A stretch of DNA of 18,202 nucleotides from a virus (IMGVR_UViG_2617270976_000013:1-18202), one strand, 5' to 3'. Positions 1-18,202 are shown, numbered from the stretch's first letter. The notes: a model not told the origin generated them from the letters alone. Made by a program: numbers and translations.

Positions 1-1254
1 ATGCTGGAACAAATGGGCATTGCCGCGAAGCAAGCCTCGTATAAATTAGCGCAACTCTCCAGCCGCGAAAAAAATCGCGTGCTGGAAAAAATCGCCGATG
101 AACTGGAAGCACAAAGCGAAATCATCCTCAACGCTAACGCCCAGGATGTTGCTGACGCGCGAGCCAATGGCCTTAGCGAAGCGATGCTTGACCGTCTGGC
201 ACTGACGCCCGCACGGCTGAAAGGCATTGCCGACGATGTACGTCAGGTGTGCAACCTCGCCGATCCGGTGGGGCAGGTAATCGATGGCGGCGTACTGGAC
301 AGCGGCCTGCGTCTTGAGCGTCGTCGCGTACCGCTGGGGGTTATTGGCGTGATTTATGAAGCGCGCCCGAACGTGACGGTTGATGTCGCTTCGCTGTGCC
401 TGAAAACCGGTAATGCGGTGATCCTGCGCGGTGGCAAAGAAACGTGTCGCACTAACGCTGCAACGGTGGCGGTGATTCAGGACGCCCTGAAATCCTGCGG
501 CTTACCGGCGGGTGCCGTGCAGGCGATTGATAATCCTGACCGTGCGCTGGTCAGTGAAATGCTGCGTATGGATAAATACATCGACATGCTGATCCCGCGT
601 GGTGGCGCTGGTTTGCATAAACTGTGCCGTGAACAGTCGACAATCCCGGTGATCACAGGTGGTATAGGCGTATGCCATATTTACGTTGATGAAAGTGTAG
701 AGATCGCTGAAGCATTAAAAGTGATCGTCAACGCGAAAACTCAGCGTCCGAGCACATGTAATACGGTTGAAACGTTGCTGGTGAATAAAAACATCGCCGA
801 TAGCTTCCTGCCCGCATTAAGCAAACAAATGGCGGAAAGCGGCGTGACATTACACGCAGATGCAGCTGCACTGGCGCAGTTGCAGGCAGGCCCTGCGAAG
901 GTGGTTGCTGTTAAAGCCGAAGAGTATGACGATGAGTTTCTGTCATTAGATTTGAACGTCAAAATCGTCAGCGATCTTGACGATGCCATCGCCCATATTC
1001 GTGAACACGGCACACAACACTCCGATGCGATCCTGACCCGCGATATGCGCAACGCCCAGCGTTTTGTTAACGAAGTGGATTCGTCCGCTGTTTACGTTAA
1101 CGCCTCTACGCGTTTTACCGACGGCGGCCAGTTTGGTCTGGGTGCGGAAGTGGCGGTAAGCACACAAAAACTCCACGCGCGTGGCCCAATGGGGCTGGAA
1201 GCACTGACCACTTACAAGTGGATCGGCATTGGTGATTACACCATTCGTGCGTAA
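1..1254 (+). CDS. proA: gamma-glutamyl phosphate reductase (proline biosynthesis)
   Basis: 417-aa ORF beginning [21 protein letters not shown], recognised as E. coli ProA over its full length; the window starts at its ATG. Confidence 0.95.
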
Positions 1255-1368: not shown

Positions 1369-1444
1369 GCCGATATAGCTCAGTTGGTAGAGCAGCGCAT
1401 TCGTAATGCGAAGGTCGTAGGTTCGACTCCTATTATCGGCACCA
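1369..1444 (+). tRNA. thrW: tRNA-Thr (anticodon CGU)
   Basis: 76-nt sequence GCCGATATAGCTCAGTTGGTAGAGCAGCGCATTCGTAATGCG...GGTTCGACTCCTATTATCGGCACCA with cloverleaf features, CGT anticodon in the loop and 3' CCA; located immediately after proA as in E. coli. Confidence 0.9.
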
Positions 1445-1458
1445 TTTAAATCAATAAG

Positions 1459-2622
1459 TTACACATCACTAGTACCTTCCTTATTTTTTGACTGGGACAA
1501 ATTTGGGACCGATGGGTTCAGGATCGAGTCTATTTGCCGTGCATGTTCGGTAAGGTGATTAGGTGCGAGGTGAGCATATCGACGAACCATTTCGATAGAC
1601 TCCCAGCCTCCCATTTCCTGTAACACTGACAACGGGACTCCGGCTTGAACCAGCCAACTTGCCCAGGTGTGTCTCAAGTCGTGAAATCTGAAATCATCAA
1701 TACCTGCTCGTCTCAGCGCCGCTTTCCAGGCTGTGTTTGCGTCATACCGCATCTTCCTGACCGTTGGCGCTTTCGTTCCGTCTGGTTTGGTACAGCTTTC
1801 CTTGTACACAAATACCCAACGGTGATGATTCCCGATTTGTTTTTTCAATACGCGACATGCAGTATCATTCAGCGCAACGCCAATTGCGCGGTTTGATTTA
1901 CTCTCTTCCGGGTTTATCCATGCCACCCGGCGCTGCATATCTATTTGTTGCCATTCAAGGTTGATGATGTTCGAGCGTCTTAAGCCTGTTGCCAGTGCAA
2001 ATTCAACAACAGACTTTAATGGCTCCGGACATTCATCAATCAGCCTTTGTGCTTCATGGGGCTCCAGCCAGCGGATCCGTTTATTCTTTGGTTGAGGCAC
2101 TTTAATAATTGGTGCCTTATCCAGCATTTTCCATTCACGCTCTGCGGCTCTTAGTAGGGCCTTTATAAATGAAAGATGCGTAGCCTTCGTTGCAACGGAC
2201 GCTGGTTTTGGCGTGTATTCTGGAACAGGTTTCCCTTTTTTTCTGCATGCTTCTGCCCTGAGTTTCCAGTTTTCCTCATGACGCCGGTTCGTCATTTTCT
2301 GCATTGCTGAATAAATTTTTGATTCAGTAATGTCTCTTAGTTGCATTCCTGCGAAATGTTGAAGCCAGAATCCGATCCGGCTTTTGTCATCGTCCAGTGA
2401 TTTTTTATGTGCTTTCTCTTCAAGCCACCTGACACACGCTTCCTCGAACGTTATATCAGGTATTTCACCAAGTTTGCTGACCCGCCATGCTTCAGCCTTT
2501 AGCTTGTCATGGAGTTCTGTCGCCTGCCTTTTGTCCTTTGTTCCAAGAGACTGTTTAAATCTTTTACCGTTCGGCAATGTGAAACTGGCGTACCATATTT
2601 CACCTCTGCGGAAGAGTGACAT
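1459..2622 (-). CDS. int: tyrosine site-specific integrase, P22-type
   Basis: 387-aa ORF with C-terminal catalytic motifs ([10 protein letters not shown] ... RRYAHL) typical of phage tyrosine recombinases; SD GAGGA upstream of the ATG at 2622; adjacent to the tRNA. Confidence 0.95.
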
Positions 2623-2849
2623 TTTCTTTCCTCTGTTATGCCATCACCCGCGCTCACCTGGACAGTATGCAGCGGAGACTGAAGCGCCGCAATGCAGGCT
2701 TGCCGTGTTGTGAGGTAAGGATATTTTGGCTTGGTTGGATCTTTACGTGTTGCCTGTAGGCGGCCTGTTCGTATCCAGTTGGTGGCGGTTGGTCTGGATA
2801 TCTTAAGAAACTGACAGGCCTCATCGAGTGTGAGGCTGTATGATTCCAT
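2499..2849 (-). CDS. xis: excisionase, P22-type
   Basis: 116-aa product starting [31 protein letters not shown], an HTH-type excisionase; overlaps the int 5' end; SD GAGGT 5 nt upstream of the ATG at 2849. The ORF track start at 2879 was rejected in favour of this ATG. Confidence 0.8.
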
Positions 2850-3099
2850 GGTTACCTCTGCTTTTTGAACGCATGTCACGTAACTTCTTAATGTGTTCTG
2901 CCGTTTCGATCTCTTCTGCTATCCGATCTGCATCAGCTTTATTCACAGGTTCAAAGTCATGATTAAAGCGGAACATGCTGGCGATACATGTTCTGCCTTT
3001 TCGGATGTAGTGAACTTTGTTGTGGGTAGAACGCAGGATTTTGCAGGGAGTGCCGTGGTGGTCGACGTACCAGGTGTTAGGAAAAATGATTCTGAACAT
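2821..3099 (-). CDS. hypothetical phage protein (92 aa)
   Basis: ORF with SD GAGGTG about 7 nt upstream of the ATG at 3099; no family recognised. Confidence 0.5.
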   Translation of the reverse strand: MFRIIFPNTWYVDHHGTPCKILRSTHNKVHYIRKGRTCIASMFRFNHDFEPVNKADADRIAEEIETAEHIKKLRDMRSKSRGNHGIIQPHTR

Positions 3100-3146
3100 T
3101 TTTACACCTCAGTTGGACGATGTTGAAATTTGCTGCTTTGAGGCCA

Positions 3147-3365
3147 TCACAGTCCCCATTGTTTGTTCTTAAGTTCGATCTCCTCCTGGCAACTTGCACA
3201 AGTCCGACAACCCTGAACAGCCAGGCGTCTTCGCTCATCTATCGGATCGCCACACTCACAACAATGAGTTGCGGATACAGTCTGGTAGTTCAGACGACGC
3301 ATTTTTATTGCTGTATTGCGCTGTAATTCTTCGATTTCTGATGCTGAATCAATGATGTCTGCCAT
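3147..3365 (-). CDS. TraR/DksA-family C4-type zinc-finger protein
   Basis: 72-aa product with CCECGDPIDERRRLAVQGCRTCASC, a four-cysteine zinc finger of TraR/DksA type; SD GGAAG upstream. Confidence 0.8.
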   Translation of the reverse strand: MADIIDSASEIEELQRNTAIKMRRLNYQTVSATHCCECGDPIDERRRLAVQGCRTCASCQEEIELKNKQWGL

Positions 3366-3414
3366 CTTCCATTAATCCCTGAATTGTTGGTTAATACGCT
3401 TGAGGATGAATGCG

Positions 3415-3441
3415 AACAATAAAAAAGGAGCCTGTAGCTCC
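3415..3441 (-). terminator. putative intrinsic terminator (minus strand)
   Basis: Hairpin ggagc-ctgta-gctcc (3427-3441); on the minus strand it is followed directly by a T6 run (plus-strand aaaaaa 3421-3426). Confidence 0.4.
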
Positions 3442-3463
3442 CTGATGATTTTGCTTTTCATGT

Positions 3464-3679
3464 TCACCGTTCCTTAAAGACGCCGTTTAACATGCCGATC
3501 ACCAGGCTTAAATGAGTCGGTGTGAATCCCATCAGCGTTACCGTTTCGCGGTGCTTCTTTAGTACGCTACGGCAAATGTCATTGACGTTTTTATCCGGAA
3601 ACTGCTGTCTGGCTTTTTTGATTTCATAATTAGCCTGACGGGCAATGCTGCGAAGGGCGTTATTATGTTCTATTGTCAT
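3464..3679 (-). CDS. hypothetical protein (71 aa), translationally coupled downstream of the 250-aa gene
   Basis: ATG at 3679 with GAGG about 5 nt upstream, 8 nt after the stop of the 250-aa ORF; product MTIEHNNALRSIARQANYEIKKARQ..., no family recognised. The ORF track extends it to 3817 but that overlaps the upstream gene. Confidence 0.5.
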   Translation of the reverse strand: MTIEHNNALRSIARQANYEIKKARQQFPDKNVNDICRSVLKKHRETVTLMGFTPTHLSLVIGMLNGVFKER

Positions 3680-3686
3680 ATTGGCC

Positions 3687-4439
3687 TCACACTTCGAATG
3701 CCAGTTGAGGGGTAAAGACGTCCCGTTCAGCGTTGTAATTAAGTGAACTGGCACTGTTGAATGATTCAATGCGTTCCACAAGAACTTGCGTACGGGTTTC
3801 TTTACTTGCGGGAGCATATGGCGAACCTACCCAGGATTTGTCGATGCCTATATTTCTTGCGACGTTCGTGCTGTCTGCAGACGAAAGCGGTACATGAGTA
3901 AAAATGTCTTTATTTAACATCCGTAACCCATGAATCTTGGTGATTGGGTAGCCGTACTGATCTACAACATGACGTATAAGATCGCGTAGTTTAGCCCGAC
4001 ACGCTCTCGGTCGTTTTGCATCGTATTCCCCCATCGAGCCGATGCAGACGCGGGGAAACTCATGGCACAGACGAATAAATCGCTCATCTGGTTCGTTCAT
4101 GTGCCACACCGGAGCACCAATAAATTTACCGTGAGGCCATGCCGCAATCAGGGCGTCATTCTCTTCACTGGTTCCGCCGATAACATCCGGGATAACCGCG
4201 AATGAGAAACGAGGGTGATTACCCCAGCGTTCAACAAATCTGTAATATTCATTCCAGTCTATGGCCTTGTTTTTTGTCCAGAATGTGAATGCACCATTAT
4301 CAAGAGCAAATGATTGGGTGACTTCGGAAGCCAGATCAATCTGAGCTGGATTAGCAAAACTGATGAATGCGTGTCTGCCTTTCCAGGCTTTCAACGCACA
4401 GGTATCGGGAGTTATTGGACCACCGTGAAAATGAATCAT
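3687..4439 (-). CDS. 250-aa protein with TGT-superfamily (tRNA-guanine transglycosylase-like) motifs; candidate DpdA-type 7-deazaguanine DNA transglycosylase
   Basis: Ordered motifs resembling bacterial Tgt: LDNGAF (46-51) vs TDSGGFQ, AVIPDVIGG (81-89), CIGSMG (132-137) vs VGGL, KDIFTHVP (177-184) vs IDMFDCVMP, TNVARN (191-196) vs TRNARN. No CxCxxC zinc site. The ORF itself is secure; the family call is from a by-eye alignment. Confidence 0.5.
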   Translation of the reverse strand: MIHFHGGPITPDTCALKAWKGRHAFISFANPAQIDLASEVTQSFALDNGAFTFWTKNKAIDWNEYYRFVERWGNHPRFSFAVIPDVIGGTSEENDALIAAWPHGKFIGAPVWHMNEPDERFIRLCHEFPRVCIGSMGEYDAKRPRACRAKLRDLIRHVVDQYGYPITKIHGLRMLNKDIFTHVPLSSADSTNVARNIGIDKSWVGSPYAPASKETRTQVLVERIESFNSASSLNYNAERDVFTPQLAFEV

Positions 4440-4594
4440 ACACTCTCCCGTTTATTATTTATCTCCTCAGCCAGCCGCTGGGCTTTCAGCGGATTTCGGA
4501 TAACAGAAAGGCCGGGAAATACCCAGCCTCGCTTTGTAACGGAGTAGACGAAAGTGATCGCGCCTACCCGGATATTATCGTGAGGATGCTTCAT
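4436..4594 (-). CDS. small protein (52 aa), lambda orf60a-like position immediately downstream of exo
   Basis: ATG overlaps the exo stop (ATGA) and its stop overlaps the ATG of the 250-aa gene (ATGA); product [52 protein letters not shown]. Below the ORF track length cutoff. Confidence 0.5.
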
Positions 4595-5271
4595 CGCCAT
4601 TGCTCCCCAAATACAAAACCAATTTCAGCCAGTGCCACGTCCATTTTTTCGATGAACTCCGGCACCATCTCGTCAAAATTCGCCATGTACTTTTCATTCC
4701 GCTCAATCACGACATAATGCAGTCCTTCACGCTTCATCCGCGGGTCATAGTTGGCAAAGTACCAGGCATCTTTTCGTGTCACCCACATGCTGTACTGCAC
4801 CTGGGCCATGTAAGCCGATTTTATGGCCTCGAAACCACCGAGCCGGAACTTCATGAAATCCCGGGAGGTAAACGGGCATTTCAGCTCAAGGCCATTGCCG
4901 TCACTGCATAAACCATCGGGAGAGCAGGCGGTGCGCATACTTTCGTCGCGATAGATGATCGGGGATTCAATAACATTTACGCCGGAAGTGAACTCAAACA
5001 CGGTTCTGGCGTCGTTCTCGTACTGTTTTCCCCAGGCCAGCGCTTTAGCGTTAACTTCCGGAGCCACACCGGTGCAAACCTCAGCCAGCAGGGTGTGGAA
5101 GTAGGACATTTTCATGTCAGGCCACTTCTTTCCTGATCGGGGCTTTGCTATCACGTTGTGAACTTCTGAAGCGGTGATGACGCCGAGCCGTAATTTGTGC
5201 CATGCATCATCCCCCTGTTCGACAGCTCTCACGTCGATCCCGGTACGCTGCAGGATAATGTCCGGTGTCAT
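4591..5271 (-). CDS. exo: lambda-type 5'-3' exonuclease (Red alpha)
   Basis: 226-aa product [40 protein letters not shown]... matches lambda Exo along its length; ATGA overlap with bet. Confidence 0.95.
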
Positions 5272-6053
5272 GCTGCCACCTTCTGCTCAGTGGCTTTCTG
5301 TTTCAGGAATCCAAGAGCTTTCACTGCTTCGGCCTGTGTCAGTTCTGACGATGCGCGAATGTCGCGGCGAAATATCTGGGAACAGAGCGGCAATAAGTCG
5401 TCATCCCATGTTTTATCCAGGGCGATCAGCAGAGTGTTAATCTCCTGCATGGTTTCATCGTTAACCGGAGTGATGTCGCGTTCTGGCTGACGTTCTGCAG
5501 TGTATGCTGTATTTTCGACAATGCGCTCGGCTTCATCCTTGTCATAGATACCAGCAAATCCGAAGGCCAGACGGGCACACTGAATCATGGCTTTATGCCG
5601 TAACATCCGTTTGGGATGCGACTGCCACGGCCCCGTGATTTCTCTGCCTTCGCGGGTTTTGAATGGTTCGCGGCGGCATTCATCCATCCATTCGGTAACG
5701 CAGATCGGATGATTACGGTCCTTGCGGTAAATCCGGCATGTACAGGATTCATTGTCCTGCTCAAAGTCCATGCCATCAAACTGCTGGTTTTCATTGATGA
5801 TGCGGGACCAGCCATCAACGCCCACCACCGGAACAATGCCGTTCTGCTTATCAGGGAAGGCGTAAATTTCTTTCGTCCACGGATTAAGGCCGTACTGGTT
5901 GGCGACGATCAACAATGCGATGAACTGCGCATCGCTGGCATCACCTTTAAATGCCGTCTGGCGAAGAGTGGTGATCAGTTCCTGTGGGTCGACAGAATCC
6001 ATGCCGACACGTTCAGCCAGCTTCCCTGCCAGCGTTGCGAGTGCTGTACTCAT
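5268..6053 (-). CDS. bet: lambda-type single-strand annealing protein (Red beta)
   Basis: 261-aa product [66 protein letters not shown]... matches lambda Bet. Confidence 0.95.
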
Positions 6054-6058
6054 CCGTT

Positions 6059-6355
6059 TTATACCTCTGAATCAATATCAAACTGGTGGTGAGCAATGGT
6101 TTCAACCATGTACCGGATGTGTTCTGCCATGCGCTCCTGAAACTCAACATCGTCATCAAACGCACGGGTAATGGCTTTTTTGCTGGCCCCGCAGCGTTGC
6201 AAATGATCGATACAGAGTGATTCAAACAGGTGCTGTGGAAGACCTTTTTCCATGTCGTCTGCCAGTTCTGCCTCTTTCTCTTCACGGGCGATCTGCTGGT
6301 AGTGACGTGCCCAGCTCTGAGCCTCAAGACGATCCTGAATGTAATAAGCGTTCAT
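6059..6355 (-). CDS. gam: RecBCD inhibitor Gam (short, GamS-like form)
   Basis: 98-aa product [47 protein letters not shown]... matches lambda Gam; SD AGGAG 8 nt upstream. The in-frame upstream extension has a stop and no ATG. Confidence 0.9.
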
Positions 6356-6431: not shown

Positions 6432-6590
6432 TTAGTGATTCAGGCCGTTACCGCGTCCGTCGAGAAAAACTTCCACGAGCAAATCACGGGTATAAGTGCG
6501 CTCGATGCCGCGATGCAGATATAGCCGTCCGCGTAAATTAGCTGATGCAGTCCAGGTACCATCTTTGTGTTTGACCAGCATTCCTGGCAT
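6432..6590 (-). CDS. small ORF (52 aa) in the kil/cIII position, function unknown
   Basis: ATG at 6590 preceded by GAGGTG (5-nt spacer); product MPGMLVKHKDGTWTASANLRGRLYLHRGIERTYTRDLLVEVFLDGRGNGLNH; below the ORF track cutoff. Overlapping alternative ORFs exist in other frames. Confidence 0.35.
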   Translation of the reverse strand: MPGMLVKHKDGTWTASANLRGRLYLHRGIERTYTRDLLVEVFLDGRGNGLNH

Positions 6591-6899
6591 GACCGCACCT
6601 CAATTAACGGTCTGCATTCCGTAATGTTGATGAACCATAAAAACTCCTGCCCGTAAGCTGGGCTGCTGAACATATAGAGACTTCTGCGCGTATTCAGGCG
6701 GTGGATGGCCGCCGGTTGTCATAACTAAGCCGCCTCGTTGAAGCGACTGAGGTATGAAATGTTGAGTTAATTTCAGCTGGTCACACCGACGTTCACGCGT
6801 CCGTTTCACCCCTCGCACTCCCCGAAGCCTGCTGAAATTCAAACTGCGGATCTAAGCGGTCATCGCAACGGTGAATCAGGTAGTTGCCGTATCGTTGTG

Positions 6900-6990
6900 T
6901 TGTTGCGATGAACTTATTTAAAACTACAGTTGTTTTATCGTCAACAACAAAAGTTGTTTTATTGGTTGTTTTAGATATAACTGGTTGTAT
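6900..6990 (-). promoter_or_regulatory. putative leftward early promoter and operator array (pL/OL-like)
   Basis: Minus strand reads TTGACG, 17 nt, TTAAAT; overlapping repeats of TAAAACAAC/GTTGTTTT in direct and inverted orientation (plus strand agttgttttatcgtcaacaacaaaagttgttttattggttgtttta). Confidence 0.4.
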
Positions 6991-7085
6991 TTAGGATGGA
7001 TTTATTTTGTGACTTGAATCGCATAGCGATAACTGAAGCGAGGTTATGGTGGTTTTTTTAACGGTGTGTGTGATGAGGGGGGGGG

Positions 7086-7113
7086 CAAAAGAAAACCCGG
7101 CACGGTGACCGGG
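7086..7113 (-). terminator. putative intrinsic terminator downstream of the repressor gene (minus strand)
   Basis: GC stem cccgg (7096-7100) / ccggg (7109-7113) with an 8-nt loop; on the minus strand followed by TTTTCTTTT and then a C9 tract (plus-strand G9 at 7077-7085). Confidence 0.4.
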
Positions 7114-7234
7114 ATTCTTACGCCGTTAGGTAAAGATATTATTGCGGTGGCTTAATATTACTACCTAGAGCAAAGATAGGAATTAGTTCTTTACTGAATG
7201 AGCACAATGCCCAGTTGATAATTTTTAATTGGTA

Positions 7235-7924
7235 CTACCCATGCTTCCTATATGTCTGCGGCATGCTCCCAATAACCTTACCGAAGATGAACACCCGGTT
7301 CATCTCGTCTTTCTCGATCGGGTCCCACGGTGAGTAGCTTTTGTTATCAGAGATGACCAGCAGCTTATCCTTCATCATTTGCAGGCGCTTTACATGGGCT
7401 GTGTCGTCGTACAGAAACGCATAGATACCATCACCGTCGAAAGATTTAACTGTGATATCAACGAACAGCAGATCACCTGGTTCGATCGTTCCTGACATGC
7501 TGTCACCACGCACGTTAATGATGCGGATATTTTCCGCCTTCCTACCATCGAACATGTGACGAGCATCGTCAAACGAGTACTCAACCGAGCGTAGAACTTC
7601 TACAAACTCACGGTTGATGACTCCCGGCCCAGCACTGACTTCTATATCAAGAACGTCAATCTTGAAGTATTTGGAATGGCTGACAGTTGATTGTATTGGT
7701 TGCACTGTACTGTCTGACATATTTCCAACGCCAGAAGATAACCATTCTGCGCGCACACCCAAAGCGTTCGCGATCTCCACGATTTTAGTTGTTTGATTAG
7801 CTTTCCCTGTTTCGATTTTCTGAATAGCAGCCTGGCTAACCCCGACCAAATCCCCAAGCGCCTTTTGTGTAAGGCCTCGCGCTAATCTGGCTTCTTTAAG
7901 TCTTTCTGAGAGTGTTGTTTTCAT
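7235..7924 (-). CDS. cI: CI-like prophage repressor, HTH plus S24 (LexA-type) peptidase domain
   Basis: 229-aa product MKTTLSERLKEARLARGLTQKALGDLVGVSQAAIQKIETGK... with C-terminal GDSM and VKRL (Ser/Lys dyad context). Start chosen at ATG 7924 (not 7990) to leave a 105-bp operator region; no SD, consistent with a leaderless mRNA. Confidence 0.9.
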   Translation of the reverse strand: MKTTLSERLKEARLARGLTQKALGDLVGVSQAAIQKIETGKANQTTKIVEIANALGVRAEWLSSGVGNMSDSTVQPIQSTVSHSKYFKIDVLDIEVSAGPGVINREFVEVLRSVEYSFDDARHMFDGRKAENIRIINVRGDSMSGTIEPGDLLFVDITVKSFDGDGIYAFLYDDTAHVKRLQMMKDKLLVISDNKSYSPWDPIEKDEMNRVFIFGKVIGSMPQTYRKHG

Positions 7925-8028
7925 AGTCCAAATGTACAACCAAGGTTTTATTCCATCAAACGAAAATGGTTGTTGACTAAAAACAACCATGGTTTTAATC
8001 TTGATTCAAATTAACCACGGAGGTTGTT
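7925..8028. promoter_or_regulatory. divergent promoter/operator region (OR, pR, pRM-like)
   Basis: Three operator-like sites sharing AACCA/TGGTT half-sites (caaccaaggtttt, aaaatggttgttg, aaaacaaccatggtttt with perfect palindrome aaccatggtt). Rightward TTGACT (7973-7978) then TTTAAT; leftward TTGATG, 17 nt, TACATT ending about 7 nt before the repressor ATG. Confidence 0.55.
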
Positions 8029-13659: not shown

Positions 13660-13771
13660 GAGTCTCGATATTAGCTGATAACCCAATACCTGAGTTATTC
13701 ACTGACTCCGAGTCTGTTACGTTTCGTAGTATTCCCTCAATTTACACCCGCTTTGTCTGCGAGGTGGGGTT

Positions 13772-13987
13772 ATGAAATCCATGGATAAGTTAACAACGGG
13801 TGTCGCCTATGGCACCTCAGCAGGTAGTGCCGGGTACTGGTTTTTACAGCTGCTAGATAAAGTCACGCCCTCACAGTGGGCGGCAATTGGAGTGCTGGGT
13901 AGCCTGGTATTTGGCCTGCTGACGTACCTGACAAACCTTTATTTCAAGATTAAAGAAGATAAGCGCAAGGCTGCGAGAGGTGAATAA
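13772..13987 (+). CDS. S: class II holin (phage 21 S-type pinholin) with dual-start motif
   Basis: 71-aa product [71 protein letters not shown]; two TM helices; Met1 and Met4 (MKSM); SD GAGGTGGGG. Confidence 0.9.
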
Positions 13988-14484
13988 TGCCTCCATCATT
14001 ACGAAAAGCCGTTGCTGCTGCTATTGGTGGCGGAGCAATTGCTATAGCATCAGTGTTAATTACTGGCCCAAGTGGTAACGATGGTCTGGAAGGTGTCAGC
14101 TACATACCATACAAAGATATTGTTGGTGTATGGACTGTATGTCACGGGCATACAGGAAAAGACATCATGCTCGGTAAAACGTATACCAAAGCAGAATGCA
14201 AAGCCCTCCTGAATAAAGACCTTGCCACGGTCGCCAGACAAATTAACCCGTACATAAAAGTTGATATACCGGAAACAACGCGCGGCGCTCTTTACTCGTT
14301 CGTTTACAACGTGGGCGCTGGCAATTTCAGAACATCGACGCTTCTTCGCAAAATAAACCAGGGCGATATCAAAGGCGCATGTGATCAGCTACGTCGCTGG
14401 ACATATGCTGGCGGTAAGCAATGGAAAGGTCTCATGACTCGTCGTGAGATTGAGCGTGAAATCTGTTTGTGGGGTCAGCAATGA
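13987..14484 (+). CDS. R: SAR endolysin (T4-lysozyme-like muramidase with signal-anchor-release domain)
   Basis: 165-aa product; N-terminal Gly/Ala-rich weakly hydrophobic segment [18 protein letters not shown] followed by a Glu, Asp, Thr catalytic spacing ([15 protein letters not shown]); TAATG overlap with the holin. Confidence 0.9.
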
Positions 14485-14941
14485 ACAGAGTAACCGCGAT
14501 TATCTCCGCTCTGGTTATCTGCATCATCGTCTGCCTGTCATGGGCTGTTAATCATTACCGTGATAACGCCATTACCTACAAAGCCCAGCGCGACAAAAAT
14601 GCCAGAGAACTGAAGCTGGCGAACGCGGCAATTACTGACATGCAGATGCGCCAGCGTGATGTTGCTGCACTGGATGAAAAATACACGAAGGAGTTAGCTA
14701 ATGCGAAAGCTGAAAATGATGCTCTGCGTGATGATGTTGCCGCTGGTCGTCGTCGGTTGCACATCAAAGCAGTCTGTCAGTCAGTGCGTGAAGCCACCAC
14801 CGCCTCCGGCGTGGATAATGCAGCCTCACCCGACTGGCAGACACCGCTGAACGGGATTATTTCACCCTCAGAGAGAGGCTGATCACTATGCAAAAACAAC
14901 TGGAAGGAACCCAGAAGTATATTAATGAGCAGTGCAGATAG
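14481..14941 (+). pseudogene. Rz: Rz (i-spanin) disrupted by a -1 frameshift
   Basis: N-terminal about 113 aa ([45 protein letters not shown]...) is lambda Rz-like, but the frame runs into ...[19 protein letters not shown] (the Rz1 C-terminus) and stops at 14882; the lambda Rz C-terminus [31 protein letters not shown] is in another frame ending at 14941. Confidence 0.7.
14701..14850 (+). pseudogene. Rz1: Rz1 (o-spanin lipoprotein), C-terminally altered by the same frameshift
   Basis: Embedded [52 protein letters not shown] (49 aa) with lipobox VVVGC; lambda Rz1 continues ...[21 protein letters not shown] (60 aa), sequence that here sits in the Rz frame. Confidence 0.6.
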
Positions 14942-14972
14942 AGCTGCCCATATCGATGGGCAACTCATGCAA

Positions 14973-15266
14973 TTATTGTGAGCAATACACACGCGCTTCC
15001 AGCGGAGTATAAATGCCTAAAGTAATAAAACCGAGCAATCCATTTACGAATGTTTGCTGGGTTTCTGTTTTAACAACATTTTCTGCGCCGCCACAAATTT
15101 TGGCTGCATCAACAGTTTTCTCCTGTCCAATTCCCGAAACGAAGAAATGATGGGTGATGGTTTCCTTTGGTGTTACTGCTGTCGGTTTGTTTCCAACAGT
15201 AAACGTCTGTTGAGCACATCCTGTAATAAGCATTGCCAGAGCGGCAGAAAACAACATTTTTTTCAT
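14973..15266 (-). CDS. bor: Bor lipoprotein (serum-resistance moron)
   Basis: 97-aa product MKKMLFSAALAMLITGCAQQTFTVGNKPTAVTPKETITHHFFVSGIGQEKTVDAAKICGGAENVVKTETQQTFVNGLLGFITLGIYTPLEARVYCSQ with lipobox LITGC; matches lambda Bor. Confidence 0.9.
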   Translation of the reverse strand: MKKMLFSAALAMLITGCAQQTFTVGNKPTAVTPKETITHHFFVSGIGQEKTVDAAKICGGAENVVKTETQQTFVNGLLGFITLGIYTPLEARVYCSQ

Positions 15267-15446
15267 CTTATTATCCTGCATTGTTAAAAACGGCAGAATC
15301 CTATGTGACAACAATTAAACGATAGTTAAATGGATTGATGAAAATTAAAACTATATAGGTGTACGGTCAGACTATTGGAGGTAGTCAGGATTTGAATGTC
15401 AGTCTGTTGTCGGCATTCTGGCAATGCAATTTGGATAAAGCGGGGA

Positions 15447-15569
15447 TTAAAAAGATAGAGGCGAGCCGGTCAGGTAGAAATGAATCAGGCTCAAAGTGAA
15501 GCGGAAAAGGTCTGTGGCACAAGCTGATGCAGCCATAATTACAGCCTGATGATTTGTGGAATGAAACAT
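15447..15569 (-). CDS. candidate small hydrophobic ORF (40 aa), unverified
   Basis: ATG at 15569 preceded by GGAGG with a 6-nt spacer; product MFHSTNHQAVIMAASACATDLFRFTLSLIHFYLTGSPLSF; no homolog recognised. Confidence 0.25.
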   Translation of the reverse strand: MFHSTNHQAVIMAASACATDLFRFTLSLIHFYLTGSPLSF

Positions 15570-15649
15570 GTTGAACCTCCTTAATTGATGTTATTCGAGT
15601 GATGAAGGCATTCTGTCCTTCTATAGTGTCCAGTAAATCAAACAGGAAA

Positions 15650-15705
15650 CTTGTCCAACGTGTTGGACAAGCCTCTCCATTAGTGAGTTGTATTGATCAC
15701 AACTC
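15650..15705. repeat. pair of inverted repeats of unknown function
   Basis: cttgtccaac-gt-gttggacaag (15650-15671, perfect 10-bp arms) and gagttgt-attgatc-acaactc (15685-15705, 7-bp arms); lie between bor and the tail-module remnant with no flanking T-run. Confidence 0.6.
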
Positions 15706-15808
15706 TACAAAGAATTCATTACTGGGTAGATGAAAATAGTTTCACGATGAATGGAGGAGGCTATGTCGGTGGCTTCTTCATTGGAGTATCCGCGAATGCC
15801 TGCAATGG

Positions 15809-15964
15809 ATGATTGATGACGGCGTGGTGTCCCGTATTGATCTGGATATCCGCCGCACCGGGATTAATGAACTGGGTAACAGTATCACTCTCTGGCGTCG
15901 TGACGGACCGGTAATGATTTCTTTTGATGATCTGTGGAGTGCGATAACGCATGGCGGACAGTGA
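15809..15964 (+). pseudogene. truncated ORF overlapping the J start, possibly the 3' remnant of an upstream baseplate gene
   Basis: Open frame from the stop at 15737 to 15964 encoding ...MIDDGVVSRIDLDIRRTGINELGNSITLWRRDGPVMISFDDLWSAITHGGQ; overlaps J by 14 nt as upstream baseplate genes often do; no SD or N-terminal domain. Confidence 0.3.
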
Positions 15965-16871
15965 ATTTCAGCGCCCGACGCTGGCAGAAAATATCAGTAT
16001 GCTCCGTAACGATTTATTCGCCAGGCTGGACGTCAGCGACACGCTCCGGCGCATGGATGAAGACGTGCGGGCAAAGGTGTATGCGGCGGCGCTGCATACG
16101 GTTTACGGTTACATCGATTATCTGGCAATGAACATGCTGCCTGACCTGTGCGATGAGTCCTGGCTGGCGCGACATGCTGCGATGAAACGGTGTCCGCGCA
16201 AGGGGGCCACGGCTGCCAGCGGGTATATGCGCTGGGAAGGTGTCAGCGATGGCCTGAAGGTGACTGCCGGGAGTGTTATTCAGCGCGATGACCTGGTTCA
16301 GTACACGGCAACTGCCGATGCAACCAGCTCCGGTGGTGTCCTGCGCGTGCCGATCGCCTGCTCAAGTGCAGGCGCGGTCGGTAACGCTGACGACGGTACG
16401 TCATTAATCCTGGTCACGCCGGTGAATGGTCTGCCGTCTTCCGGCGTGGCAGACACTCTGACAGGTGGATTTGATACTGAAGAGCTGGAAACGTGGCGCG
16501 CCCGCGTCATTGAGCGGTATTACTGGACGCCTCAGGGCGGGGCTGACGGGGACTATGTTGTCTGGGCTAAAGAAGTGCCAGGCATTACCCGTGCATGGAC
16601 ATACCGCCACTGGATGGGAACGGGGACTGTCGGTGTGATGATTGCCAGCAGTGACCTGATTAATCCCATTCCGGAAGAATCAACGGAAACGGCGGCAAGA
16701 CAACACATTGAGCCACTGGCCCCGGTGGCAGGCTCTGATTTGTATGTATTCAGGCCGGTGGCGCATAAAGTGGATTTTCATATCCGCGTGACGCCGGACA
16801 CACTGGAAATACGGGCTGCCATCACCGCCGAGTTGCGTTCGTTCCTGCTGCGTGATGGTTATCCGGAGTAA
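15951..16871 (+). CDS. baseplate assembly protein J-like (P2 gpJ family)
   Basis: 306-aa product MADSEFQRPTLAENISMLRNDLFARLDVSDTLRRMDEDVRAKVYAAALHTVYGYIDYLAMNMLPDL... recognised as the P2 J / e14 JayE baseplate family. Confidence 0.8.
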   Translation: MADSEFQRPTLAENISMLRNDLFARLDVSDTLRRMDEDVRAKVYAAALHTVYGYIDYLAMNMLPDLCDESWLARHAAMKRCPRKGATAASGYMRWEGVSDGLKVTAGSVIQRDDLVQYTATADATSSGGVLRVPIACSSAGAVGNADDGTSLILVTPVNGLPSSGVADTLTGGFDTEELETWRARVIERYYWTPQGGADGDYVVWAKEVPGITRAWTYRHWMGTGTVGVMIASSDLINPIPEESTETAARQHIEPLAPVAGSDLYVFRPVAHKVDFHIRVTPDTLEIRAAITAELRSFLLRDGYPE

Positions 16872-17095
16872 TCCATGCATCGTATAGATACGAAAGACAG
16901 CTATTAATTAATCAGGCCAACGAATACATGAACAGTAAACAATGGCCCGGTAAAACCGCTATTGGTCGTCTGAAAGGCGAGGAACTGGCGCAATATAATT
17001 CGTGGCTGGATTATCTGGACGCACTGGAGCTGGTTGATACCTCCAGTGTGCCAGATATTGAATGGCCTACGCCTCCGGCAGTTCAGGCCAGATGA
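16872..17095 (+). pseudogene. tail fibre assembly protein remnant (C-terminal part only)
   Basis: Frame open from the J stop encodes ...ERQLLINQANEYMNSKQWPGKTAIGRLKGEELAQYNSWLDYLDALELVDTSSVPDIEWPTPPAVQAR, the conserved C-terminal region of Tfa chaperones, with no N-terminal domain; converges on and overlaps the complete tfa on the other strand. Confidence 0.5.
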
Positions 17096-17669
17096 CATCA
17101 GGCGCGGTGCTGGTATCAGTTGCCGTCACCGCGTCAATGTAATCCAGCACAGCGTTAAGGCTGGTTGTTTCTGCCTGCGTCAGTTTACGTCCGGCCTGCA
17201 ATTTCAGCTGAATCAGACTGATTGAAGCCATTGCAGTATCAATCAGTGACTGGCGCTGTGCTTCTGCTGCATCTACTGCGGCGCTATGCTGTGCTTCGGT
17301 ATCCGTCACCCATTTCTCACCATCCCATTTATCGTATGGCGTTAACGGGGCGATAGTGGTTGTATTATCAGGGTAATCACCCGGAGCTGTGATTTCTTTT
17401 GACTCTCCCGTTTTGGTGCTATAGACGATTTCACCGCGATGGTCTGGCACATATTCCCATGAGTTAAAATTTGCAGAACGACAGATAGCATAACCCGCCT
17501 TATGTGTGCCAGGGGCATCTAAACAGGAATATGCAGGAATACCGACACCAATGGCAAGATATTCAGTTGATGCTGAAATATATTCCTGCGTCTCACTATC
17601 ATAGTTATAAACGGTAATATCCCCCGACTTTGTAGCAATAAGCTCACTATTTAATATTGCTTTATCCAT
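17067..17669 (-). CDS. tfa: tail fibre assembly protein (Tfa chaperone)
   Basis: 200-aa product ending ...QSLIDTAMASISLIQLKLQAGRKLTQAETTSLNAVLDYIDAVTATDTSTAPDVIWPELPEA, the characteristic Tfa C-terminus; start overlaps the stop of the upstream tail-fibre ORF (TAATG). Confidence 0.85.
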   Translation of the reverse strand: MDKAILNSELIATKSGDITVYNYDSETQEYISASTEYLAIGVGIPAYSCLDAPGTHKAGYAICRSANFNSWEYVPDHRGEIVYSTKTGESKEITAPGDYPDNTTTIAPLTPYDKWDGEKWVTDTEAQHSAAVDAAEAQRQSLIDTAMASISLIQLKLQAGRKLTQAETTSLNAVLDYIDAVTATDTSTAPDVIWPELPEA

Positions 17670-18202
17670 TATGCTGCTCTCACGATATAGTTAAATGCAA
17701 TGTTTCGAGGGCGATTCTCTGATGCTGTTGGTACAACCCTGGATGCATCAAAACTGAATCCTGTGTAAGGGGTATTTTTTGTTTCATATGTGCCTAGGTT
17801 ATTATAGATATTTCGCGTAGCTTGAGATGCTAAGGCAAAAGCACCAGTACCAGTCTGTAACCTGAAAGTTGCTGTATCAATGGTGCCTTTAACTTCATTT
17901 ATAAATCCTGTTATATTCCGAATGGTATCTCCCTGTGACGAAAGCAAGCTACGGTTAGTATCAATCCCTCTTCCATCATCCCAGCCACGAATAAACTCAC
18001 CGCGTAAATCAGGCAATTTATTTGTCGGGTAAACCTTTGCCAGTTCCGGGTATTCTTCAGCAGAAAAAGCCGCCCCGTTGCATTTCAGCCAGCCTGTTGG
18101 CGGAGTGGCGGAAGGCCACGGAACAGGCACGCCAACGGGTAATGCCGAACCTTCTCCCAAACCAACGTTTATGAAAATGCAGAAATAACGAGCAAATGGC
18201 AT
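17669..18202 (-). CDS. tail fibre protein, C-terminal (variable) segment with tail-collar domain
   Basis: 177-aa product containing LPDLRGEFIRGWDDGRGIDTNRSL (tail-collar signature); only 177 aa, so it cannot be a whole fibre; the ATG sits at the last bases of the window. Confidence 0.75.
   Translation of the reverse strand: MPFARYFCIFINVGLGEGSALPVGVPVPWPSATPPTGWLKCNGAAFSAEEYPELAKVYPTNKLPDLRGEFIRGWDDGRGIDTNRSLLSSQGDTIRNITGFINEVKGTIDTATFRLQTGTGAFALASQATRNIYNNLGTYETKNTPYTGFSFDASRVVPTASENRPRNIAFNYIVRAA
18152..18177. other. candidate DNA-invertase crossover site (hix/gix/pix-like)
   Basis: TTCTCCCAAACCAACGTTTATGAAAA: 26 bp, imperfect dyad around an AAACC-AA-CGTTT core; resembles hixL (TTCTTGAAAACCAAGGTTTTTGATAA) recalled from memory; lies within the 5' end of the tail-fibre segment. 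Confidence 0.5.

Follow-up and report, generated by a model that had tools for sequence, protein, structure and literature searches.

Three short, closely spaced genes on the minus strand follow the exonuclease gene exo in the 18,202-nucleotide stretch of viral DNA analysed here (IMGVR_UViG_2617270976_000013:1-18202, hereafter the window), and their arrangement raises the question of whether they make up a dedicated accessory operon. An earlier note on this DNA had read them in this way, with a 250-amino-acid (aa) protein resembling tRNA-guanine transglycosylase (TGT) and a 71-aa protein as its possible partner. Our analysis showed that the three genes are orf60a and orf61 of the lambdoid exo-xis region, flanking a swapped-in cassette that carries the 250-aa gene. 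This gene is already catalogued as a singleton (DpdA-only) phage DpdA.

Organisation of the Genes Downstream of exo

The tight coupling of the genes and their location in the early-left (exo-to-xis) region were borne out. The exo stop codon (TGA 4593-4591) overlaps the ATG (4594-4592) of the 52-aa open reading frame (ORF) in an ATGA, with GGGGAG 8 nt upstream of that ATG; the stop codon of the 52-aa ORF (TGA 4438-4436) overlaps the ATG (4439-4437) of the 250-aa ORF in the same way, with GGAG 5 nt upstream. The 71-aa ORF follows close behind, its ATG at 3679 being separated from the 250-aa stop codon (3689-3687) by a 7-nt spacer, and has its own Shine–Dalgarno sequence (GAGG, 5 nt upstream of the ATG), which overlaps that stop codon. 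The same 52-, 250- and 71-aa frames were called by the Prokaryotic Genome Annotation Pipeline (PGAP) in an identical copy of the locus in E. coli L73. None of them is a chance ORF, since each has a strong family match (DUF1317, phrog_887 and phrog_303, respectively).

Two other frames were considered and rejected. A 54-aa version of the first ORF, starting at an in-frame ATG at 4600, disagrees with the 52 aa called by PGAP in L73, and a 117-aa in-frame ORF (3464-3817, minus strand) overlapping the 250-aa gene is probably spurious, since its homologues in phage ev243 and in L73 are annotated as 71 aa. The GenBank and RefSeq records of Shigella phage SfI do give the corresponding gene as 117 aa (L001 4065-4418), with a 131-nt overlap with the DpdA gene; the reference annotation is probably over-extended, since the homologues and PGAP favour the start at 3679.

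The first ORF had been described as orf60a-like, and this holds: its product matches Pfam DUF1317 (E-value 1.8e-33) and is identical to lambda Orf60a at 49 of 52 positions (94%), departing from it only in the last 2-3 residues. According to its annotation, lambda orf60a likewise has a 4-nt overlap with the end of exo. The 71-aa protein is 90% identical to gp35 of ev243, and its residues 1-24 share 71% identity with residues 33-56 of the truncated lambda orf61 product. Its gene is syntenic, lying downstream of the orf63 slot, and the counterpart in phage PhiR30_1 is annotated “orf61”. Pfam and NCBIfam scans of the 71-aa protein gave no match. The description of the 71- and 250-aa products as two proteins of unknown function therefore needs correction as far as their families are concerned, the former being lambdoid Orf61 and the latter a catalogued singleton DpdA.

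A blastn comparison with lambda, ev243 and PhiR30_1 revealed 96-99% homology over positions 3300-3661 and again from 4437 (4429 in PhiR30_1) to 4800, and no match to any of the three between these limits. Because homology stops at both edges, the intervening 3662-4436 segment was recognised as a mosaic cassette. One of its junctions falls within the first six codons of orf61, and the other cuts orf60a from 60 to 52 aa. Annotations show other genes in this slot: orf63 (DUF1382) in both lambda and ev243, and one for a Dam methylase in PhiR30_1. The tight translational coupling is thus a consequence of the cassette splice point and does not constitute evidence of a functional complex. An identical DpdA cassette occurs in L73 in a different prophage, located beside a tRNA-Arg gene, and therefore the cassette moves between prophages. 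In SfI-like, HK97-like (HK106) and P22-like (BTP1) phages, the position of the DpdA-type gene is always the same, with the recombination module on one side and xis/int on the other.

The earlier note had closed the unit with a hairpin and T-run at 3415-3441; such a structure is present on the minus strand, at 3443-3417, about 2 nt away from those positions. The RNA fold has an energy of -10.2 kcal/mol (z = -2.57), and 2 of 200 shuffled sequences fold as well. The hairpin, which falls in a flank conserved across 181 phage records, is real but modest and may act as a terminator. Same-strand genes go on past it (DksA/TraR-like, DUF4222, xis and int), and an Rfam scan of the whole window returned a tRNA only, with no known antitermination RNA bearing on read-through of the hairpin.

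The 250-aa Protein Belongs to the DpdA Family

The TGT-like character of the 250-aa protein was confirmed by a match to phrog_887 (“queuine tRNA-ribosyltransferase”) with an E-value of 2e-99; the validated DpdA of phage CAjan matches the same family at 8e-96. The protein is 99.6% identical to YP_009147480 (gp34) of SfI, which is listed among the DpdA-only phages in Supplementary Data 1 of Hutinet 2019. A family profile of 76 diverse sequences was built and used for hhalign, conservation and Pfam scans. Its hhalign comparison with CAjan DpdA gave a probability of 98.8% (E-value 6e-17, 171 columns, residues 23-195) and paired the motifs LDNGAF/LDSGAF (D47/D63), KLHG/KLHA (H170/H187) and SADS/SCDS (D189/D206). 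D47 and H170 are invariant in the 76 members, while H5, G6, D85, H113, E116, R173 and D189 are kept in at least 90% of them. D47 and D189 would be equivalent to D95 and D265 of bacterial DpdA. A tblastn search gave 35.5% identity to the DpdA of Salmonella phage 7-11 over 70% of the protein.

The predicted structural model has the TGT-like (beta/alpha)8 barrel characteristic of phage DpdA, with all conserved residues located at the C-terminal ends of the barrel strands. A first AlphaFold2 model, based on a shallow alignment (pLDDT 76), had retrieved only generic TIM barrels with Foldseek; it would have wrongly weakened the TGT assignment and was therefore replaced with a model built from a deeper alignment. 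In a viral structure library, all 30 significant matches were phage proteins, 8 of which are named queuine/queuosine tRNA-ribosyltransferase and the others unnamed.

Only the fold is shared with canonical TGT: the zinc site (CxCxxC...H), profile similarity and the Pfam TGT domain are lacking, and none of the 76 family members matches PF01702. Searches of PDB sequences with phmmer and two profiles returned noise only (HipT, a designed repeat protein and GCN4) and no TGT. The protein is also shorter than TGT and bacterial DpdA.

The family comprises about 1700 clusters at 50% identity, and its catalytic-type residues are invariant across them. Comparison with homologues of 81-91% protein identity indicated purifying selection on the DpdA gene (pN 0.07-0.15, pS 0.77-0.90 and pN/pS 0.09-0.18, with synonymous sites saturated). 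Together with the intact ORFs at 99% or higher identity in 95 complete genomes, these data make it highly improbable that the gene is an inactive passenger, i.e., a decaying remnant brought in by recombination and having no current function, although the prophage appears mosaic or defective and 5 of the 100 E. coli genomes carrying the gene hold partial copies only.

Independent Distribution of the 250- and 71-aa Genes

Of 5426 complete E. coli genomes, 3248 have the 71-aa gene (4402 places), whereas 100, or about 2%, have the DpdA gene (106 places, all chromosomal and all at least 99% identical). Among the 181 phage records matching the flanks, only 3 contain the DpdA gene. The neighbourhoods of 156 DpdA-homologue loci were surveyed, and the only ones with a near-identical 71-aa gene next to the DpdA gene were the 17 near-identical E. 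coli/Shigella copies. Near DpdA homologues of 84-91% identity, a distant relative of the 71-aa protein (29-41% identity) is sometimes encoded 0.5-2 kb away, as expected from shared lambdoid synteny. Even a weak 71-aa homologue is found nearby in only 2 of 76 loci from other species, and phages HK106, BTP1 and Epa33 have a DpdA-like gene without the 71-aa gene. Clustering of the neighbours of DpdA loci revealed no universally conserved partner gene, the commonest neighbours being lambdoid backbone genes and methyltransferases.

The two genes are thus distributed independently of each other, an outcome that the earlier note had named beforehand as refuting a partnership. A dedicated two-component accessory system made up of the 250- and 71-aa proteins is scarcely credible on these counts, and also because the 71-aa protein represents the conserved Orf61, for which a separate phenotype has been described (PMC6213356), and its gene contains the cassette junction. 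What speaks for such a system is the adjacency of the genes across the 7-nt spacer, kept in 17 of the 17 near-identical E. coli/Shigella copies retrieved, and the presence of a 29-32% identical 71-aa homologue directly downstream of the DpdA homologue at two distant loci (L148 and L150). However, this adjacency is a product of the cassette swap, the junction of which falls within the first six orf61 codons.

Published work places the exo-xis region in the early transcription from pL (PMC8614690). Deletions of orf60a and orf61 change the lysis-lysogeny decision and prophage induction, and Orf60a and Orf61 have been modelled as small DNA-binding domains (PMC8614690, PMC6213356). Each of the two products, predicted to bind DNA, would act on its own as a small regulator of lambdoid development and not as an enzyme subunit.

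Predicted Function of the Singleton DpdA

We consider it probable that the 250-aa protein is a stand-alone DpdA-type enzyme that swaps guanine in phage DNA for a host-made 7-deazaguanine (preQ0 or a related base), evading restriction. TGT and DpdA enzymes exchange guanine for 7-deazaguanine via a covalent Asp-ribosyl intermediate (PMC10164549), and 7-deazaguanine modifications are known from the literature to protect DNA from restriction enzymes. Once the phage has infected a cell or been induced, the DpdA gene would be translated from the early-left message of exo, helped by the ATGA stop-start overlaps. The zinc-less TGT-like TIM barrel would use the invariant Asp47 (LDNGAF) and His170 (KLHGLR), plus Asp189 (SADS), and guanine in double-stranded, replicated phage DNA would be exchanged for a 7-deazaguanine of the host queuosine pathway (preQ0, possibly preQ1). 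The precursor would be supplied by the host; no preQ0 synthesis genes were found among the scanned ORFs of the window. In E. coli, plasmid DNA acquired dPreQ0 when the DpdA of phage 9g was expressed by itself (PMC6884629), and therefore the host precursor pool should be sufficient. DNA modified in this way would be partly shielded from restriction in the next host. Among the functions suggested earlier for this location, an anti-defence role is predicted to be the most plausible.

The recurring associates of the DpdA genes are DNA-modification genes of several kinds. An MT-A70 methyltransferase gene overlaps or abuts the 3' end of the DpdA-like gene in 26 loci, Pseudomonas phage Epa33 has a C5-cytosine methylase gene 14 nt downstream of its DpdA-like gene, and Enterobacter phage Phc carries an adenine methylase gene near it. 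Fusions of the DpdA-like domain occur in two metagenomic relatives: P0237, where the other part is a D12 Dam methylase, and P0250, where it is QueD/PTPS, a preQ0-synthesis enzyme. The fusions and couplings suggest combined “double modification” anti-restriction modules, of which no prior description was found in the literature. Considering the alternation of orf63, Dam and DpdA genes in the slot and the coupling or fusion of DpdA to three DNA methyltransferase classes, the slot would be a small “hot spot” for anti-restriction genes within the early operons of lambdoid phages. Translational coupling of DpdA-like genes to MT-A70 or C5 DNA methylases was also observed in other temperate phages (L137:4737-5609; L167:5740-7830).

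Several observations weigh against modification of phage DNA by this enzyme. One of the main weaknesses is that the only tested relative, phage 7-11 of the singleton group, showed trace modification, its DNA containing 50 dADG per 10^6 nt and no dPreQ0 (Hutinet 2019). DNA of mycobacteriophage Orion had no modification, and the singleton DpdAs form separate similarity clusters, for which functional divergence has been raised (Hutinet 2019). The 250-aa protein matched no Pfam (including Pfam TGT) or NCBIfam family and nothing in PADLOC, including its DpdA model at E-values up to 1, and no similarity emerged when the family profile was compared by hhalign with E. coli Tgt as a single sequence (probability 0.4%). 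There is no Cys or His after D189, and thus the structural zinc site of TGT and bacterial DpdA is lacking. No DpdB-like ATPase partner is present, and the top structural match is Cap10, a protein-directed enzyme. Moreover, since the prophage is mosaic and possibly defective, the gene in this window may never act on packaged DNA.

The trace modification in 7-11, the missing zinc site and the structural match to Cap10 keep alive an alternative that we regard as unlikely but worth keeping in view: the singleton DpdA could have diverged, retaining a TGT-like pocket while acting on protein (by Cap10-like deazaguanylation), on host tRNA or on another base, or performing base excision only. The separate singleton clusters and the divergence explicitly raised by Hutinet 2019 agree with this. 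On the other hand, no Cap9/QueC-like or CD-NTase gene lies nearby and PADLOC gave no match, the profile homology is to DNA-acting DpdA, and DNA methyltransferases recur both as neighbours and as fusion partners. One could assign a comparably low probability to the broader proposal that zinc-less singleton DpdAs of temperate enterobacterial phages are a distinct TGT-like branch and not bulk DNA preQ0 insertases. If this were true, host preQ0 or preQ1 would be put into nucleic acid, of phage or host, at only one or a few specific sites or structures or, alternatively, deazaguanine would be conjugated to protein, as by Cap10; either variant would explain the trace modification in 7-11.

The accessory (“moron”) position of the gene in temperate phages and its PHROG category, “moron, auxiliary metabolic gene and host takeover”, could also point to prophage exclusion or defence, in which the enzyme would act on incoming foreign DNA or the host chromosome and not on the phage's own DNA; bacterial DpdA does belong to a restriction-modification system (PMC10164549). 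However, such a role is very unlikely, given that the gene lies inside the pL early operon with no promoter-like site found on the gene strand within 2800-5400, and that restriction-type partners (dpdD-K-like) and a PADLOC match are absent. The pL early operon is repressed in lysogens.

These results are mainly of value in clarifying the locus: what looked like an “operon” is the exo-xis region, already known, in which one slot has been exchanged, and there is no two-protein system. The remaining interest lies in the activity of the singleton DpdA, for which guanine exchange in phage DNA is the reading we favour, and in the DNA-modification slot of the exo-xis region. The lambdoid, E. coli-hosted DpdA described here is probably the most tractable system for settling the activity of singleton DpdAs.

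Prophage Context

The window opens with host chromosome at its left end, and a lambdoid prophage begins after the tRNA, with int starting 15 nt past the end of tRNA-Thr(CGU) (Table 1). The prophage sits at thrW, the attachment site used by SfI-type phages. The 417-aa ORF at the left end is presumably proA, an assumption based on its length and its position beside thrW. Rightward cro/cII/O-like genes come after the minus-strand CI-like repressor gene. Over positions 3400-4650, the nearest phage DNA is that of Shigella phage SfI (99.2% identity) and Escherichia phage PhiR5_1 (98.9%).

Table 1. Coordinates of the features identified in the window.
Feature	Position	Strand	Remarks
417-aa ORF	1-1254		host DNA
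tRNA-Thr(CGU)	1369-1444		host DNA; Rfam scan
int	1459-2622	-	prophage
xis	between int and the DUF4222 gene	-	
DUF4222 protein	2821-3099	-	Pfam DUF4222, E-value 1.9e-19
DksA/TraR-like zinc-finger protein	3147-3365	-	Pfam zf-dskA_traR, E-value 2.8e-9; phrog_54, E-value 3.6e-26; next same-strand gene past the hairpin
Intrinsic-terminator-like hairpin	3417-3443	-	terminator scan: 8-pair stem 3443-3425, 3-nt loop, then T-run; about 20 nt past the orf61 stop
orf61 homologue (Stx-phage type), 71 aa	3464-3679	-	phrog_303, E-value 1.8e-33, profile positions 23-93 of 101
Mosaic cassette, 775 bp	3662-4436		DpdA gene plus 25 nt downstream (Shine–Dalgarno sequence and first 6 codons of orf61)
Singleton phage DpdA-family, TGT-like TIM-barrel protein, 250 aa	3687-4439	-	predicted DNA-guanine transglycosylase
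orf60a homologue (DUF1317), 52 aa	4436-4594	-	3' end truncated by the cassette junction
exo (lambda exonuclease, Red-alpha)	4591-5271	-	226-aa ORF; exonuclease at the syntenic position in SfI, ev243 and E. coli L73
bet	5268-6053	-	
gam	6059-6355	-	
kil	6432-6590	-	
CI-like repressor	7235-7990		

No N-like antiterminator gene was recognised between kil and the CI-like repressor gene (6590-7235), whereas SfI has N, ral and ssb-like genes at this position. An 80-aa TTG-started ORF at 6600-6842 encodes an Arg-rich stretch, RGVKRTRERR, that resembles the arginine-rich motifs of N proteins, and has no PHROG match. A pL-like sequence (TTGACG...TTAAAT) was noted near 6945-6915.

The prophage is mosaic and possibly defective, since no terminase or head genes were found between the lysis and tail genes of the window. 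In the 13700-18202 segment, identity to mEp332 is 99% through the lysis genes, as far as about 15380. The genes directly after these, from about 15790, are P2/Mu-like, encode baseplate and tail-fibre-assembly proteins and are 94-95% identical to those of myovirus-type phages; no single phage record spans 80% of the segment. A 380-aa protein encoded on the minus strand at 12118-13260 matches phrog_410. In L73, the gene at the corresponding position carries a porin annotation (NmpC/OmpD-like) and lies between a Q-like antiterminator gene and the lysis genes, a place known to hold morons in lambdoid phages. The L73 prophage with the identical DpdA cassette also carries an MT-A70 methyltransferase pseudogene with an internal stop after replication gene P (L164 23377-23961), and a phosphoribosyltransferase-like/NADAR gene pair in its nin region.

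Comparison with Known Systems

In the lambda/Stx-phage exo-xis region, genes run orf60a-orf63-orf61-orf73-ea22. The window has the same order of orf60a and orf61 directly after exo, with the DpdA cassette in place of orf63; orf73, ea22 and ea8.5 are absent, and DksA/TraR-like and DUF4222 genes follow instead. Its orf60a encodes 52 aa instead of the 60 in lambda, and its orf61 starts at a point corresponding to residue 23 in the 93-aa Phi24B form.

Experiments have shown that the DpdA of CAjan (DpdA1) is needed for dPreQ0, which amounts to about 32% of G; its deletion abolishes dPreQ0 in phage DNA (PMC6884629). The CAjan enzyme belongs to the same PHROG and shares the LD(S/N)GAF, KLH and S(A/C)DS motifs with the 250-aa protein, but the two are only about 20% identical, and the CAjan enzyme ends in a tail of about 95 residues unrelated to the C-terminal 55 residues of the 250-aa protein. 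Genes for FolE, QueD, QueE, QueC and a preQ0 transporter lie beside CAjan dpdA, while this phage has none of them, and the scanned ORFs of the window gave no match to the preQ0/G+ pathway (FolE, QueD, QueE, QueC/Gat-QueC). A co-encoded preQ0/G+ pathway defines groups 1-2 of phage DpdA and not the DpdA-only group.

In the Dpd restriction-modification system of bacteria, DpdA (PDB 7UI4) has 413 residues. Its zinc site, its DpdA-specific insertions and the accompanying DpdB ATPase and DpdC are all absent here, which sets the 250-aa protein apart from the bacterial DpdA group; the neighbours of the 250-aa gene are exo, orf60a, orf61 and the DksA-like gene. Cap10 of the type IV cyclic-oligonucleotide-based antiphage signalling system (CBASS; PDB 9NTN) likewise has no zinc site, but it shares only 10% identity with the 250-aa protein, whose gene lies in a phage early operon and not in a defence island and is unaccompanied by Cap9 (QueC-like), CD-NTase or effector genes.

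The closest counterpart is the singleton group itself. The DpdA-only phages constitute a “third group” of 76 phages, the largest in the census of Hutinet 2019, whose modification status was called unpredictable; besides SfI, the list includes HK106, BTP1, SPN3UB, SEN1, Athena1, PEAT2, SE131 and 7-11. The BTP1 and SPN3UB proteins are 68% identical to that described here, and those of HK106 and 7-11 are 36-37% identical. As in the window, phages of this group have no preQ0/G+ synthesis genes of their own and a host with the full queuosine pathway. Beyond the 2019 catalogue, no literature was found on HK106, SfI or other lambdoid singleton DpdAs, or on PhiR5_1. There is no substantial difference between the 250-aa protein and the DpdA-only group; added here are the anatomy of the cassette (775 bp, the orf63 slot and its alternation with Dam) and its independence from orf61.

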